A stretch of DNA of 64,000 bases, from contig CAYGGZ010000005.1 in NCBI GenBank assembly GCA_964349765.1, positions 15,918-79,917 of the forward strand, in the 5' to 3' direction. How positions within the stretch are numbered: the first letter of the stretch is position 1; every line of letters starts with the position of its first letter. The notes beneath the pieces are model-generated. The model was not told the origin of the DNA, ran no database searches, and worked only from the letters and a program-made list of their open reading frames with translations. Positions 42,323-55,897 of this stretch are shown piece after piece. Made by a program: the position numbers and the translations under genes. The stretch comes from an uncultured Bacteroidales bacterium. GTDB taxonomy: Bacteria; Bacteroidota; Bacteroidia; Bacteroidales; JAAYJT01.

Positions 42323-42747
42323 TTCTGATTAGAGTTTTTAATAAGGGTGCAAAGATGAGCATTAATTGTTAACAATTCTGAAAACAAACTACAAGCTATC
42401 CTGCAAAGGATTGTATTCATAGCAAAACGGAAGGTTTTAGTATGGGATTAACAAGTTACAAGCAAGCCTAAAAGACGACACCACAACCATCAACCTGACA
42501 CCTAAACCTCGAACTTTGACATCCTGACCAGACTTTTCAGTCAACCTTAACACGGCAGACAATTTCGCTGTATCTCGACTCCGACCAGCAGACCAACTTG
42601 ACGAAACACAAGCCAACCCCTCTACAAAGCCAAAAGAGCCACTTTTTTCCTACGCACCAAAGACGGTAGAGACAGCAAATACGCAATTTGTAGAGCCCAT
42701 ACTTAAATTTATTTTCATAAAAAGTTTGATAATTAGAAAACTTTGAC

Positions 42748-42755
42748 TACTTTTG
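42748..42755 (+). promoter_or_regulatory. candidate -7 box (TAnnTTTG) for the Type I R-M operon
   Basis: tacttttg sits 25 nt upstream of the TTG start of the half-hsdS ORF, with tttgac just upstream. A second match, taaatttg (42773-42780), overlaps that start. Confidence 0.3.
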
Positions 42756-42779
42756 TAGAGTCATTACAAAGGAATAAAT

Positions 42780-43346
42780 TTGAAAACCTTAATTAAACAT
42801 ATCACAAACATCCAAACCGGACTCTTTGCAAAGCCCTCTGGCAGTGGCAATGTTGTGTATTTACAATCCAAGCATTTTGACGAAAACGGACAATTGCATG
42901 CTGTTCTTCACCCTGATTTGGTGGCTGAGGGGATTTCTGAAAAGCATCTGCTAAGAGACGGTGATGTGATTTTTGCAGCGAAGGGTTATAAAAACTTTGC
43001 AGCCGTTTTTGAAAACCACAACGAACCTTCCGTTGCTTCTACCTCCTTCTTTGTTATAAGACCAACCGACCAAAAAGTGTTGTCTAAATATTTGGTTTGG
43101 TTTCTAAATAACCACACCACACAAACACTTTTAAAAGGCCAAGCCATCGGAACTTCAATTCCTTCCATTTCAAAACAGGTTTTAGAAAATCTGGAAATTA
43201 CAGTGCCGAGCATTGAAATCCAAAAGGCGATTCTGAAAATCACAAAACTCCGCAACAAGGAGAAAGCTTTGAAGCAGGAATTAGAACTTTTAAGAGATAG
43301 AAAAATAAATCAACAGCTATTACAGGCTATAAACTATGAGAGATAA
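42780..43346 (+). CDS. hsdS: Type I restriction-modification specificity subunit, half-size (single TRD plus one conserved helix)
   Basis: 188 aa. TRD-like body (GDVIFAAKG...SFFVIRP...YLVWFLN...GTSIPSISK..LENLEI.VPS.EIQ..I) and a coiled-coil tail. Only a TTG start is available; the last codons lie in an inverted-repeat arm. Confidence 0.65.
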   Translation: MKTLIKHITNIQTGLFAKPSGSGNVVYLQSKHFDENGQLHAVLHPDLVAEGISEKHLLRDGDVIFAAKGYKNFAAVFENHNEPSVASTSFFVIRPTDQKVLSKYLVWFLNNHTTQTLLKGQAIGTSIPSISKQVLENLEITVPSIEIQKAILKITKLRNKEKALKQELELLRDRKINQQLLQAINYER

Positions 43347-43355
43347 GATATGAGA
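43335..43355. repeat. left inverted-repeat arm of four-helix-bundle cassette 1
   Basis: tatgagagataagatatgaga matches the reverse complement of the CATATCT array (tatgagatatgagatatgaga) at 19 of 21 positions. It contains the hsdS-half stop codon and the cassette gene's ATG. Confidence 0.8.
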
Positions 43356-54000: not shown

Positions 54001-54246
54001 CGCAAAGAGGTCTCAATGCAGACGGCTTTACAAATTGATGACCTGATTCAACAATCGGTTTTAGACAGCGGCAAACCTATTATTGACTGGCAATTCAAAA
54101 CCAACATCACAGGTAAATTGCTCATTGATATTGGCGACTATCTGATTGACGAAGTGAGAGACAAATACAATGTTGACTTGTCTTTCAAGGAAATGGACAA
54201 GATTGCAGATGACTGTATTGATGTTGCTAAAATCCGCTATAAATAA
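51019..54246 (+). CDS. hsdR: Type I restriction enzyme endonuclease/translocase subunit R
   Basis: 1075 aa. HSDR_N nuclease region (RPDLVLFVNGIPICIIECK), Walker A HTQGSGKSLTMV, DEAH-like VLVDEGHRTQ, helicase C motifs (IIVVDKLLTGFDEP, QAIARVNR). Confidence 0.97.
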   Translation: MDTPSFKEDHISQIPALQMLVKLGYTYLSPAETERLRGGKTTNVLLEDVLRRQLKEINSIRVSASKTSIFTDENIERGILALKNLPMNEGYIAACEKAYNLLTLGQALEQSVDGDKKSFTLQYIDWKNIGNNVFHVSEEFTVMRSTSKEHYRPDLVLFVNGIPICIIECKRPDMKEPLKQAISQHLRNQQEDGIRSLYVYSQLTLSIATQEAAYATNATPEKFWAKWQEKFSNDEEEGNYKNKLQEFKNKPLAISIKDQLFSDRFKYVRQYFDALEQEEILPTEQDNYLYGLCRPERLMDIVFNFVLFDNGEKKIARYQQFFAIKKSMHRIRNIEKGKRKGGVIWHTQGSGKSLTMVMLAQAIAMEPSIRNPKIVLVTDRTDLDNQITGTFRKCGKFVENATTGRRLVELLESKSDAVVTTIINKFVAAVKKISKPLENHDIFVLVDEGHRTQHGIFNIDMQKTLPNACFIAMTGTPLFKKDKSTAAKFGGVIDAYTVDQAVSDKAVVPLLYEGRLALQDVNASPIDTFFGMVSEPLTEYQKADIKKKFARYDHLNSAEQKMRMITWDISYHFRNNWQGRTPFKGQLVCDKKVNAIKYKEYLDEINIVSSEVLISSIDEREGEESAYEKSTEKGNQFWKKMMDEHGNSKRYEKNIISRFKNQKDPEIIIVVDKLLTGFDEPKNTVLYLTRNLRGHKLLQAIARVNRIYPDKEFGYIIDYYGVIENLDDALQLYSSFEDFDEEDLAGTLINISDEIKKLPQKHSDLWDIFKTIANKRDAEAYQQLLKDEAIRVLFYDKLAAFAKSLKLALSSIQFHKDVEEKTIKRYKEDLTMFLKLRLAVVERYSDEIDYKQYEGQIQKLIDTHITTEKIETITELVSIFDKDKFQQEVENTTGKAAKADKIASRTAKHITEKMDEDPAFYKKFSQMLRETIAEYEAKRISEAQYLSRVQDIMNNLLAHTDNDIPEQIRYRDVAKAFYGLTVEALAEKIQDNIVRKEVSMQTALQIDDLIQQSVLDSGKPIIDWQFKTNITGKLLIDIGDYLIDEVRDKYNVDLSFKEMDKIADDCIDVAKIRYK

Positions 54247-54276
54247 TTGAGAATTGAAAATGGAGAATTAAGAATG
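54247..54276. repeat. left inverted-repeat arm of four-helix-bundle cassette 2
   Basis: ttgagaattgaaaatggagaattaagaatg. The core aatggagaatt (54259-54269) is the perfect reverse complement of aattctccatt (54640-54650). Confidence 0.8.
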
Positions 54277-54627
54277 AAAGAAAATATTGTTAAGTCTAAA
54301 AGTTTGGAGTTTGCTTTACGTATCGTAAAGCTGTTTCAGTATCTGTCAGACAAAAAAAAAGAGTATGTGTTAAGCAATCAATTGCTGAGAAGTGGAACAG
54401 CAATTGGAGCATTGGTTAGAGAATCCGAACATGCTGAAAGTAAGGCTGATTTTATACATAAGCTCTCAATTGCACTAAAAGAAGCTAATGAATCAGATTA
54501 TTGGGTTGAACTTCTTCACCGTTCTGAATATCTTACGGAATCTGAATACAAATCACTTTTTTCTGATTTAGATGAGATTAGACGATTATTGGTGTCTATA
54601 ATTAAAACTTCAAAAGGCAAAAAGTGA
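54274..54627 (+). CDS. four helix bundle protein (23S rRNA intervening-sequence protein family)
   Basis: MKENIVKSKSLEFALRIVKLFQYL...EYVLSNQLLRSGTAIGALVRESEHAESKADFIHKLSIALKEANESDYWVELL. The ORF track extends to TTG 54247; ATG 54274 is preferred. Confidence 0.9.
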   Translation: MKENIVKSKSLEFALRIVKLFQYLSDKKKEYVLSNQLLRSGTAIGALVRESEHAESKADFIHKLSIALKEANESDYWVELLHRSEYLTESEYKSLFSDLDEIRRLLVSIIKTSKGKK

Positions 54628-55373
54628 TGGACGCAAAAGAATTCTCCATTCTGCATTCTGCCTTCTCCATTCAATTTGGGAGCAGAACAATTGTTTTTCG
54701 GTTGGAATATTCCAACCGAAAAACAATTGGAATTACCGTAACTCCCGAAATGGAAGTGTTGGTAAAAGCACCGACAGACACAACAATGGAAAAAGTGAAA
54801 GAGAAAATAAGAAAAAAAGCACCTTGGATAATTAAACAACAAAGCTTCTTTCTTTCCTTTCAACCTAAAACGCCACAACGAAAATACATTAACGGTGAAA
54901 CACATTTGTACCTGGGCAGACAATATCGTTTAAAAATTGTGCATGATGAATTAAGAGTGATGAATGAAGGTGTCAAGTTGAAAGGGCAGTTTTTAGAAGT
55001 TTATACTAATGATAGAGGAAGAGCGAAAACATTGGTTGAAAATTGGTATCTAAAAAAAGCGAAAGATGTATTATCTAAAATTGCGATACCCTTGTTAGAC
55101 AAGTTTATAACTAAATACAATTTATCATTAATCACTCATCATTTATCATTAAGAGAAATGCCGACACGTTGGGGAAGTTGCACTCCAAAAGGAAAAATCA
55201 TTTTAAATCCTGAATTGATTAAAGCGCCAAAAGGCTGTATAGAATATGTTATTATACACGAACTTTGCCATTTAATACATCACGACCACACACGGAAATT
55301 TATAGATTTACAGACCAAGGAAATGAAAGACTGGGAAAAGTGGAAAATGAAATTAGAGAAATTATTAGCATGA
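54624..55373 (+). CDS. YgjP-like (DUF45/SprT-like) HExxH metal-dependent hydrolase associated with Type I R-M
   Basis: WGSCTPKGKIILNPELIKAP..CIEYVIIHELCHLIHHDH. GTG 54624 / ATG 54627 overlap the stop of the upstream gene. Confidence 0.85.
   Translation: MMDAKEFSILHSAFSIQFGSRTIVFRLEYSNRKTIGITVTPEMEVLVKAPTDTTMEKVKEKIRKKAPWIIKQQSFFLSFQPKTPQRKYINGETHLYLGRQYRLKIVHDELRVMNEGVKLKGQFLEVYTNDRGRAKTLVENWYLKKAKDVLSKIAIPLLDKFITKYNLSLITHHLSLREMPTRWGSCTPKGKIILNPELIKAPKGCIEYVIIHELCHLIHHDHTRKFIDLQTKEMKDWEKWKMKLEKLLA
54637..54680. repeat. right inverted-repeat arm of cassette 2 (inside the 5' end of the ygjP-like gene)
   Basis: aaagaattctccattctgcattctgccttctccattcaatttggg. Contains aattctccatt and a second cttctccattc copy. 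Shares the GAATTCTCCA core with the 50784-50953 iterons. Confidence 0.8.
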
Positions 55374-55897
55374 GAAGCCTACACACAAAAGCACACATCC
55401 CGAAAGCTTTCGAGACAAGCCGCATCCCGCTTTTTGCGAAAAAAAAGAGTGTCTTTTCGGCAATCCAAAAAGAAATCCAATTTTTTTCTCTCTTCCTTCG
55501 GCGCTTTCTTTTCCGCCACCCACAGCCGACACATAAACAGTTGGACAGAAGCAGCGAGTGGTTAAATTCAAGTTCAGTTTTTTAGTTCAACTTTATTGCT
55601 GGGTTGTCAGTTTTGTGCCCTGAAATCCCGCACGAACATCAAACGCAGAACCGTATAATCTAACCATCACCCGAACCATCATCCGCAGCAGCAAAACATG
55701 AGACTTTAATTCCTTTAGAACCATAATTCGCTATTTTTGCCAAAGAGCGCGGATTGCTTTTAAGGCAAAGCTTGTTCAATAATATGCAAATCGAAACAGC
55801 ACCCCTGAAATATCAACCTTTATGCTGAAATCATATTTAATTATTTCTGTAAAACAAAGTTTCTGATCCGCAATATGGCCAGCTTTTCAGGATTATT

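Follow-up and report, generated by a model that had tools for sequence, protein, structure and literature searches.

The window analyzed here, a 64,000-nt stretch of DNA from an uncultured Bacteroidales bacterium, contains an island between two RNA methyltransferase genes (positions 42323 to 55897) in which all genes lie on the plus strand. An initial annotation had described this interval as a Type I restriction-modification (R-M) island and had listed its genes in order; the open reading frame (ORF) listing and Pfam scans verified that map, with every listed gene at its place and on one strand. The island comprised an R-M backbone (half-hsdS, hsdM, hsdS, hsdR, and ygjP), passenger genes in two slots beside hsdS, and two genes for four-helix-bundle (4HB) proteins carried on short hairpin cassettes. 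Taken jointly with the account of slots and cassettes given below, it is probable that the block is a single horizontally acquired Type I R-M operon that consists of its own promoter, half-hsdS, hsdM, hsdS, hsdR, and ygjP. The features of the island and its flanks, with target recognition domains abbreviated as TRDs and conserved regions as CRs, were as follows.

41435-42322, minus strand: left flank, class I S-adenosylmethionine methyltransferase, RlmI-like (295 amino acids; PF10672, 6e-13; relatives at most 60% identical)
42454-42779, plus strand: island leader (from the starts of blastn blocks and alignment)
42780-43346, plus strand: half-hsdS, backbone (Methylase_S, 2e-11; one TRD and one conserved region)
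43337-43753, plus strand: 4HB cassette 1 (417 nt; left arm, 4HB ORF, and right arm of ATCTCAT repeats)
43350-43718, plus strand: 4HB gene 1 (23S_rRNA_IVP, PF05635, 1e-28; PDB 2RLD, 5e-34)
43759-45456, plus strand: hsdM (565 amino acids; N6_Mtase, 4e-95; HsdM_N, 4e-24; DPTCGS, motif I, at 212; NPPF, motif IV, at 288)
45036-45258, plus strand: ORF-less hairpin insert in hsdM, in frame (about 57 extra residues; arms 45087-45123 and 45207-45256)
45479-46342, plus strand: KilA-N gene, slot A (KilA-N, 3e-20; PDC-S22, 2e-131; phrog_2657, "transcriptional regulator," 1.5e-59)
46513-47814, plus strand: hsdS with two TRDs (Methylase_S in two stretches; CR1, 46978-47130; CR2, 47666-47808)
47826-48677, plus strand: HAD phosphatase-like gene, slot B (HAD and Put_Phosphatase; PDC-S34, 7e-116; DFDGT and GDGESD intact)
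48681-48920, plus strand: DUF2188 gene, slot B (DUF2188, 1e-21; PDC-S16, 6e-31)
48924-50585, plus strand: AlbA_2 (Schlafen-like) gene with HATPase_c_4, slot B (553 amino acids; Pfam)
50586-51018, plus strand: spacer rich in repeats, upstream of hsdR (five close copies of TTGAATTCTCCAAA and a degenerate pair)
51019-54246, plus strand: hsdR (1075 amino acids; HSDR_N, SWI2_SNF2, T1R_D3-like, and T1RH-like_C; REase_I, 2e-213, in PADLOC)
54247-54627, start probably at 54274, plus strand: 4HB gene 2 (PF05635, 2e-27)
54248-54668, plus strand: 4HB cassette 2 (421 nt; heptamer-repeat arms on both sides)
54624-55373, plus strand: YgjP-like metallopeptidase gene, backbone (YgjP-like, 5e-51; HELCH motif; after hsdR in relatives too)
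55374-55897, no strand: right noncoding stretch (relatives' homology stops at 55385-55490; no Rfam match)
55898-56716, plus strand: right flank, SpoU-family (RlmB/TrmH-like) RNA methyltransferase (SpoU_methylase, 8e-36; TIGR00186, 127.5 against a cutoff of 160)

The initial annotation had counted five passenger genes, but six noncanonical genes were present, plus a doubtful 73-codon ORF. Its placing of passengers at the backbone junctions held for the slot genes; half-hsdS proved to belong to the backbone, and the two 4HB genes are hairpin cassettes. The GC content was 0.382 in the block versus 0.438 in the rest of the window, with each island gene between 0.32 and 0.43, and the intergenic gaps measured -4 to 40 nt except for 170 nt upstream of hsdS and 434 nt upstream of hsdR.

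Homologs of HsdM with 78 to 93% identity came from sources named as Chitinophagaceae, Saprospiraceae, Cecembia, Algoriphagus, Lentimicrobium, Ferruginibacter, and Dyadobacter, and the backbone family is widespread in Bacteroidota. Nine related islands were fetched, which made ten islands in all with that of the window (L-numbers designate comparison loci). Among the nine relatives, identity to the window was 83 to 93% for HsdM, 85 to 92% for HsdR, 64 to 83% for half-HsdS, 73 to 76% for YgjP, and 33 to 52% for the full HsdS. The backbone genes half-hsdS, hsdM, hsdS, hsdR, and ygjP were common to all relatives, as far as their contigs reach. The full hsdS gene was bracketed by two slots, slot A between hsdM and hsdS and slot B between hsdS and hsdR, and the contents of these slots differed among relatives.

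Window: slot A, KilA-N; slot B, HAD, DUF2188, and AlbA_2
L101: slot A, KilA-N; slot B, DUF3800, a 66-amino-acid protein, a SEC-C protein, and a 241-amino-acid protein
L086: slot A, a 1073-amino-acid Cas3/DpdF-like helicase; slot B, proteins of 149 and 593 amino acids, DUF3800, and a 76-amino-acid protein
L089 and L091: slot A, SMODS with or without E2-CBASS; slot B, a 75-amino-acid protein, patatin, SMODS, and Fic
L092: slot A, Bro-N and a 339-amino-acid protein; slot B, contig ends
L094: slot A, PDDEXK_3 and a 64-amino-acid protein; slot B, a 255-amino-acid protein, DUF2188, and Fic
L097: slot A, Fic; slot B, proteins of 146 and 210 amino acids, DUF2188, and Fic
L102: slot A, empty, with hsdM and hsdS overlapping; slot B, DUF4917 (PDC-S21), DUF2188, and Bro-N

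The idea that such a locus serves as a docking site for other defense genes was borne out by the CBASS, Fic, Cas3/DpdF-like helicase, and DUF3800 genes held in the same two slots by the relatives. Only four parts aligned between islands in blastn, namely, hsdM, CR1 (87 to 92%), CR2 (77 to 90%), and hsdR from position 51006, so the variable blocks are cargo A with TRD1, TRD2, and cargo B. Type I systems are known to swap their TRDs through homologous recombination in conserved regions; here, cargo and TRDs would be swapped together, with the highly conserved 3' end of hsdM, the two conserved regions of hsdS, and the 5' end of hsdR as anchors. Cargo exchange by recombination at these backbone anchors would fit the alignments well, and the comparative series suggests that cargo travels with the swapping of hsdS TRDs. 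At the left boundary of slot A, right after the hsdM stop codon, a 10-bp perfect stem (CCATTTCGAG / CTCGAAATGG) was seen within 45457 to 45483; it overlaps the first ATG of the KilA-N ORF, and in an independent assembly of the same species (L001) the gene call begins 8 codons later.

HsdM, an HsdS with two TRDs, and an HsdR with a nuclease and a superfamily 2 motor were all found, as in Type I R-M systems. The HsdR motifs were intact, with PD...ECK (of the PD...ExK nuclease type) at 153 to 170, GSGKS at 349, and DEGH at 447. HsdM together with an HsdS would methylate the host DNA, and HsdR would restrict unmethylated DNA, a predicted core mechanism that the domains and motifs make secure. The half-hsdS product measured 183 to 188 amino acids in all nine relatives, including those free of 4HB cassettes, and the 64 to 83% identity extended over its full length. 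CR1 and CR2 of the full hsdS were also detected as a repeat pair. A half-HsdS that is conserved, next to a full HsdS that varies, suggests two specificities: the half-HsdS would confer a constant, probably symmetric one and the full HsdS a variable one. Two other views of the half gene were rejected. It is not a full hsdS cut off by the 4HB insertion, its length being equal in the cassette-free islands L092 and L101, and it is not part of an invertible hsdS shufflon, given that half-hsdS and all other genes are co-oriented, that there is no recombinase, and that the inverted repeats belong to the heptamer arms of the cassettes.

DNA homology to the relatives began at about 42617 to 42687 (42454 for L089 and L102) and stopped at 55371 to 55490. 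The DNA shared with related islands, about 42454 to 55490, is slightly less than the interval first proposed, 42323 to 55897. About 115 nt upstream of half-hsdS were conserved in all relatives and held TTTG and TACTTTTG motifs in the alignment. Compared with the Bacteroidetes promoter consensus, the conserved leader motifs TTTG ... TACTTTTG were inferred to be a putative Bacteroidota-type promoter. Because of the limits of homology and the conserved leader before half-hsdS, the mobile unit would run from this promoter to the ygjP stop codon. Upstream of the promoter, at 42454 to 42619, lies a G-poor, CA-rich noncoding element that was shared only with L089 and L102, at 82 to 86% identity, and had no Rfam match at E <= 1.

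Pfam detected no domain of an integrase or a transposase in the island or its immediate neighbors. The island edges had no direct or inverted repeat of >=9 nt in common and no tRNA or Rfam family, even at E <= 1, and the sole tRNA/Rfam match of the window was a tRNA-Leu at 63134; the initial annotation had likewise seen no integrase, transposase, or tRNA at the edges. Plasmid and phage records held no close copy of the island, and these collections returned distant hsdM genes only. The names RlmI-like and TrmH-like given to the flanks stood at the level of families. As equivalogs they did not, the NCBIfam scores lying far under the cutoffs (the RlmI models for the left flank included), and both flanking methyltransferases are family-level calls only. 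Further out, Pfam identified rpe, rpoD, and pnp beyond one flank and transketolase genes beyond the other; downstream of the SpoU gene, a gene with a VWA domain was seen to separate the two genes that encode the halves of a split transketolase (56710 to 59919, minus strand).

Among 5.8 billion proteins, nothing was found between 100% and 60% identity to the left-flank methyltransferase, and because of this jump from 100% to <=60%, no sister genome of the host is present in the collections. In exact-protein lookups, both flanks matched the same species alone, always in this arrangement (12 of 12 contigs with an identical flanking protein were alike). The nine island copies lay in at least five distinct chromosomal flanks, with differing passengers, and these flanks contained Sua5; DUF4062 and HTH_Tnp; an SDF-family transporter, with YbeY and GidA further out; CHU_C and DUF2975; and GatB and LptD. 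Relatives alike in gene order, flanks, and composition were thus not found, and the proposal of an accessory insertion stood. A further 80 loci from GTDB species encoded homologs 46 to 60% identical to the left-flank methyltransferase, and in these the rpe/rpoD/pnp synteny was lost. A SpoU gene (46 to 51% identity) lay divergently upstream of the homolog in 11 of the 80, and the SpoU/RlmI pair was directly adjacent in L051 (67 nt apart) and L079 (88 nt). The other nine pairs were split by ordinary-looking, unscanned ORFs, and no hsd homolog lay between the partners in any of the 11. Adjacency of the two flanking genes, which had been put forward as a check in close relatives, was seen only in the distant loci L051 and L079, at about 50% identity.

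PADLOC and HMM searches of the island proteins, which the initial annotation had proposed, identified three passengers as catalogued candidates: the KilA-N, HAD, and DUF2188 proteins matched PDC-S22, PDC-S34, and PDC-S16, respectively, over their full lengths. By gene order, all three are embedded in a same-strand Type I R-M system. Starting from genes nested within BREX, DISARM, and Type I R-M systems on the same strand, Payne et al. (2024; bioRxiv 10.1101/2024.01.29.577857) derived 145 candidates of this kind and named PrrC as the classic embedded case; their text and its accessible supplements do not contain the PDC identifiers. No discussion or validation of PDC-S16, PDC-S22, or PDC-S34 was found in the text of that preprint, its accessible supplements, or the literature searched, in which PDC-S22 was mentioned by one survey paper only. 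PrrC was absent from the PADLOC matches of all passengers, and none resembled the PrrC-type nuclease that had been offered as an example. The AlbA_2 protein had no strong PADLOC match, and a sequence search of solved structures returned no relative of the KilA-N, HAD, or AlbA_2 protein. The KilA-N protein had full-length phage homologs, filed as regulators, and DUF2188 has phage homologs too. A perfect palindrome of 17+17 nt was seen in the KilA-N gene (45705 to 45738). The slot genes would act as co-expressed second-line defense or regulatory modules, and a defense function of the passengers is a prediction only and unproven.

DUF2188, although listed as the single-gene candidate PDC-S16, was always the second gene of a pair (48681 to 48920 in the window, 14335 to 14571 in L094, 15756 to 15992 in L097, and 9257 to 9496 in L102). 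The first partner was the HAD protein (PDC-S34) in the window, the 255-amino-acid protein in L094, the 210-amino-acid protein in L097, and DUF4917 (PDC-S21) in L102; DUF2188 is thus the constant member of a pair whose other gene varies. The AlbA_2 protein occupies the position, last before hsdR, where relatives carry Fic. In the spacer that follows it, the TTGAATTCTCCAAA repeats lie in 50782 to 51006, with two of the pairs 21 nt apart and the degenerate pair adjoining hsdR; Fic-bearing relatives had other repeats (CTATACATG-like) in the pre-hsdR spacer. The spacer repeats and the neighboring AlbA_2 or Fic gene look like candidate regulator and operator pairs before hsdR. The 73-codon ORF in this spacer (50798 to 51019) had no family match and a GC content of 0.32, was composed of direct repeats, and was not conserved at the DNA level with the 76-codon ORF of L086; it is probably not a gene.

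The two 4HB genes, whose proteins also matched TIGR02436 (NCBIfam), are not slot cargo. They lie on hairpin cassettes of about 420 nt that are present or absent exactly between the stop and start codons of the neighboring genes. Cassette 1 was cleanly absent in L092 and L101, where half-hsdS runs directly into hsdM (blastn blocks). At the site of cassette 2, L091, L094, L097, L101, and L102 had 10 to 38 nt instead; this boundary was taken from blastn blocks and direct reading of the sequence, the MAFFT gap at the hsdR/ygjP junction being misplaced. The cassettes also supply codons to their neighbors. The left arm of cassette 1 gives half-HsdS a new stop, with the protein ending in ...AINYER in place of ...NAIK, and the right arm of cassette 2 adds MDAKEFSILHSAFS to ygjP, providing its start codon and its first 14 codons. 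This addition precedes the IQFGSRT with which the L091 protein begins, and the stop codon of 4HB gene 2 overlaps the new ygjP start. A perfect palindrome of 21+21 nt was seen just after cassette 2, in the 5' part of ygjP (54688 to 54729), and a short-read contig, L003, begins inside it.

The arms of cassette 1 (43326 to 43355 and 43734 to 43763) were 80% complementary. A 17-nt heptamer probe (CTCATAT units, which are ATCTCAT in another register; <=3 mismatches) detected 14 sites, all within 43338 to 47660, against 0.13 expected, and these formed inverted pairs around 4HB gene 1, within hsdM, and around TRD2 of hsdS. Tandem Repeats Finder reported period-7 arrays at 43705 to 43760 (8 copies), 45224 to 45256, 47144 to 47171, 54245 to 54275, and 54641 to 54672. 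The arm sequences varied between islands, yet the complementarity of left and right arms was kept: cognate arm duplexes had a mean of -19.3 kcal/mol, versus -14.8 for noncognate and -9.8 +/- 3.0 for shuffled ones, and the cognate value was reached in 25 of 20000 permutations. The minimum-energy folds of both cassettes closed on the arms, with the 4HB and hsdM start codons paired. In the transcript, the arms would pair into a stem that masks the start codons of the 4HB gene and of the gene downstream; upstream translation would open this stem, or RNase III would cut it, the architecture being that of the 23S rRNA intervening sequence (IVS). Solo heptamer tracts resembling the right arms of cassettes were seen directly upstream of the hsdR start in L094 (15900 to 15942) and L097 (17360 to 17402).

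The 4HB ORFs were under purifying selection, with ratios of nonsynonymous to synonymous divergence (dN/dS) of 0.07 to 0.11, like hsdM. Their synonymous divergence (dS) was discordant with that of the adjacent hsdM (2.6 for 4HB and 0.67 for hsdM between the window and L086; 0.73 and 1.31, respectively, between L091 and L097), a disagreement which indicates that the cassettes move independently of the backbone. Beyond these two, the window had no 4HB gene, and none was found in the 1.35 Mb of loci that surround the flank homologs.

A related element without an ORF was found inside a coding sequence. HsdM homologs occurred in two forms, of 519 to 527 amino acids and of 558 to 575 amino acids; the longer form has an insert, which is of either of two types and always occupies one position. 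In an alignment of the window's hsdM insert with cassette 1, both arms matched and so did the 3' end of the 4HB ORF (score of 136, versus 57 +/- 7 for shuffles), and the fold of the insert closes on the arms. The second insert type, in L094, has heptamer arms, GTGAAAA / TTTTCAC, which match those of the 4HB cassette in that island. In a comparison of six islands, pairing of the insert arms was stronger with the cassette arms of their own island than with cassette arms from elsewhere; 28 of 720 permutations reached the observed value, and the kinship of insert arms with their own island's cassette arms is only suggestive. The assumption that the insert always accompanies the upstream cassette was rejected; because L101 carries the insert without the cassette, the two are separable. 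By its sequence, the hsdM insert is an in-frame fossil, an ORF-less relative of the 4HB cassette. As a separate observation, the right arm of cassette 1 (43705 to 43760) pairs with the left arm of the hsdM insert (45087 to 45123), 1.3 kb downstream, at -34.9 kcal/mol, versus -25.7 kcal/mol with its own left arm; this long-range alternative would leave most of the hsdM message inside the loop. In hsdS, arm-like inverted sequences at 47133 to 47187 and 47624 to 47660 bracket TRD2 and add six residues (DELGDM) after LLTGKKRL. The same bracketing was found in L101 and L097, and L101 has another TRD2 between the same arms.

Over 20.9 kb, the sole difference between the window and the independent same-species assembly L001 was one ATCTCAT unit: of the perfect copies at 43729 to 43754, directly before the hsdM ATG, there were five in the window and four in L001. 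Either slipped-strand variation, like that in Coxiella, or an artifact of assembly may account for this difference. The short-read contigs of the species break in the repeat arm of cassette 1 and in the perfect palindrome just downstream of cassette 2.

The architecture of the cassettes has a parallel in rRNA genes. The 23S rRNA IVS of Coxiella measures 428 nt, has a 28-bp terminal stem and an S23p ORF, and is excised by RNase III; its tandem heptamers differ in copy number between strains, and its origin and function remain unclear according to the authors (PMC4990558). The 4HB family has also been reported within cas operons (PMC3936711), as CRISPR-linked (PMC10910872), between gmk and nadD in Flavobacterium columnare (PMC5524665), and as homologous to the Avd protein of diversity-generating retroelements (DGRs) (PMC10053308). 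Identification of the 4HB proteins as DGR Avd was rejected, on an NF033474 score of 17.2 against a cutoff of 80 and in view of the island having no reverse transcriptase domain and no pair of template and variable repeats.

A metagenome scan with the 4HB alignment yielded 80 loci. Arm pairing at z < -3 was found in 46 of the 77 ORFs with both flanks (median z, -4.1), and a same-strand ORF lay <=150 nt upstream in 66 loci and <=150 nt downstream in 53. A period-7 arm run (>=18 of 21 self-matches) was present in 29 of 75 loci, with none at the other periods from 4 to 12 and none in control windows. The commonest neighbors of these 80 genes were ResIII (10), Methylase_S (8), HSDR_N (6), N6_Mtase (4), N6_N4_Mtase (4), and RhuM (3), and these R-M families stood among many housekeeping families. 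We tentatively suggest, with a little less than even confidence, that 4HB genes mark a family of hairpin cassettes (about 420 nt, S23p/Avd ORF, arms of 7-nt repeats) that is of the same kind as the 23S rRNA IVSs and is still being exchanged between operons. The same tentative suggestion includes the proposals that the cassettes insert at stop/start junctions of operons, favor R-M and CRISPR loci, and rewrite the stops and starts of their neighbors and that ORF-less copies can persist in frame, as in hsdM.

Several observations weigh against this account of the island and its cassettes. The empty site was seen only at about 50% protein identity, with the remaining synteny gone and the sister genome of the host absent from collections. 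The island ends without an integrase, a tRNA, or a direct or inverted repeat and has no close plasmid or phage copy, and the route of movement is not visible. The literature searched held no experimental report of antiphage activity of PDC-S16, PDC-S22, or PDC-S34, which are predictions only. No target-site duplication was visible at the cassette junctions, the fold z scores of the whole elements were modest (-1.7 and -2.1 for the cassettes and -0.55 for the hsdM insert), and 18 of the 77 metagenomic 4HB genes had no arm pairing. The contexts in the survey are biased, because its 80 loci were chosen by similarity to R-M-embedded 4HB proteins.

Other explanations were weighed against the same data. 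On one view, the block is no insertion but a core region that this lineage has long passed on vertically, which agrees with the uniform arrangement of all 12 contigs that have the identical flanking protein and with the lack of mobility genes and att-like repeats. This explanation was already strongly disfavored by the 83 to 93% identity of island proteins across Bacteroidota families against <=60% for the flank, the fall in GC content inside the block, the same backbone in at least five other chromosomal contexts, and the adjacency of the flanking pair in L051 and L079, and we consider it hardly credible. The slot genes might instead be regulators or accessories of the R-M system itself, serving hsdR expression, establishment, or anti-restriction sensing rather than independent defense. 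The KilA-N protein has a DNA-binding fold and full-length phage homologs filed as transcriptional regulators; the last gene before hsdR codes for the AlbA_2 protein in the window and, in relatives, for a Fic protein whose C-terminal domain is SoFic-like, each followed by its own set of direct repeats in a spacer of 200 to 430 nt; and DUF2188 recurs beside differing partners. However, the same slots in relatives hold complete autonomous systems (CBASS with a patatin effector and the Cas3/DpdF-like helicase), the L102 backbone works without slot A cargo, and the intact active site of the HAD protein suggests an enzyme, not a regulator, which leaves this explanation rather unlikely.

For the cassettes, it is possible, if doubtful, that the 4HB proteins are working parts of defense operons and that the hairpins provide RNA processing or translational coupling that serves the host, instead of being the ends of a selfish element. 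Purifying selection as strong as that on hsdM (dN/dS of 0.07 to 0.11), R-M genes as the commonest neighbors of the 80 metagenomic 4HB genes, the pairing of both start codons by the stem, and the family's occurrence inside cas operons (PMC3936711), CRISPR linkage (PMC10910872), and homology to DGR Avd (PMC10053308) all agree with such a role. On the other hand, backbones that are 83 to 93% identical function with or without either cassette; many 4HB genes lie in housekeeping operons (ABC transporters, mevalonate decarboxylase, and gmk-nadD in F. columnare); the dS discordance indicates independent movement; and rRNA genes hold the same architecture with no known host function. It is less plausible, and on balance improbable, that the heptamer array before hsdM is a contingency locus at which slipped-strand copy change switches or tunes methyltransferase expression (phase variation). 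Five versus four ATCTCAT copies are the only difference over 20.9 kb between two assemblies, the number of heptamers varies among Coxiella strains (PMC4990558), and repeat-controlled Type I systems are known (PMC7383803). However, just two assemblies were compared and the difference could be an artifact, and because the repeats lie outside the reading frame, copy changes cause no frameshift.

As a defense locus, the island is a further example of a published principle, that of genes embedded in Type I R-M systems. The concept was already known, because that principle is published and three of the passengers are already catalogued PADLOC candidates. The ten-island series, with one backbone and differing cargo in two fixed slots, adds natural controls for PDC-S22, PDC-S34, and PDC-S16. 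Most of the remaining interest lies in what the 4HB "passengers" proved to be: cassettes of the IVS type with heptamer arms, for which both filled and empty sites exist and of which hsdM retains a fossil. The origin, mobility, and purpose of rRNA IVSs have been open since about 1990 (PMC4990558), and no description of IVS-type cassettes in protein-coding operons was found in the literature searched. In mRNA operons, the same architecture comes with precisely defined filled and empty sites, an ORF under selection, and a repeat period of strictly 7 nt. If the cassette suggestion is true, rRNA IVSs would be a long-known special case of a general operon-invading element, and the filled and empty alleles at protein-coding sites would make the origin and mobility of that element testable.

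EcoprrI-PrrC, in which an anticodon nuclease is embedded in a Type I R-M system and is reported to guard that system, resembles the island in having a passenger inside a Type I R-M operon; the passengers of the island differ in being KilA-N, HAD, DUF2188, and AlbA_2 proteins, none of them PrrC-like in PADLOC. Rickettsia palindromic elements and insertions resembling miniature inverted-repeat transposable elements are short palindromic elements that lie in frame in a protein gene and are translated as an extra loop. In form, the hsdM insert likewise is an in-frame, translated palindrome. Unlike the Rickettsia elements, its arms are heptamer repeats akin to those of a neighboring 4HB cassette, and its host belongs to another phylum.

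The embedded-gene Type I R-M systems of Payne et al. (2024) are like the island in having foreign genes nested between the subunits of a same-strand Type I R-M system, with known systems at the same places in relatives. The island adds a defined backbone family with two fixed slots beside hsdS, a conserved half-hsdS, and ygjP, and the "single-gene" candidate DUF2188 is here always the second gene of a pair. Phase-variable Type I systems, namely, inverting hsdS shufflons and repeat-controlled phasevarions (PMC7383803), share with the island an extra partial hsdS and a simple repeat by hsdM that differs between assemblies. In contrast to those systems, the half-hsdS of the island is conserved, lies on the same strand, and has no repeats in common with hsdS; there is no recombinase, and the repeat lies outside the coding frame. 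DGR Avd belongs to a homologous four-helix-bundle fold family (PMC10053308), whereas the 4HB genes of the island have no adjoining reverse transcriptase.

The closest likeness was that between the cassettes and the 23S rRNA IVSs of Coxiella and Leptospira (PMC4990558), in which every architectural feature of an IVS was found except location in rRNA, the window containing no rRNA. The sizes are alike (417 and 421 nt versus 428 nt), as are the closing terminal inverted repeats, the ORF-side tandem heptamers of variable number, the Pfam family, and a GC content under that of the host. The 23S rRNA IVS sits in an rRNA helix, whereas the cassettes lie between protein genes at stop/start junctions and donate stop and start codons, and the cassette ORF, unlike that of the 23S rRNA IVS, is under purifying selection rather than decaying.

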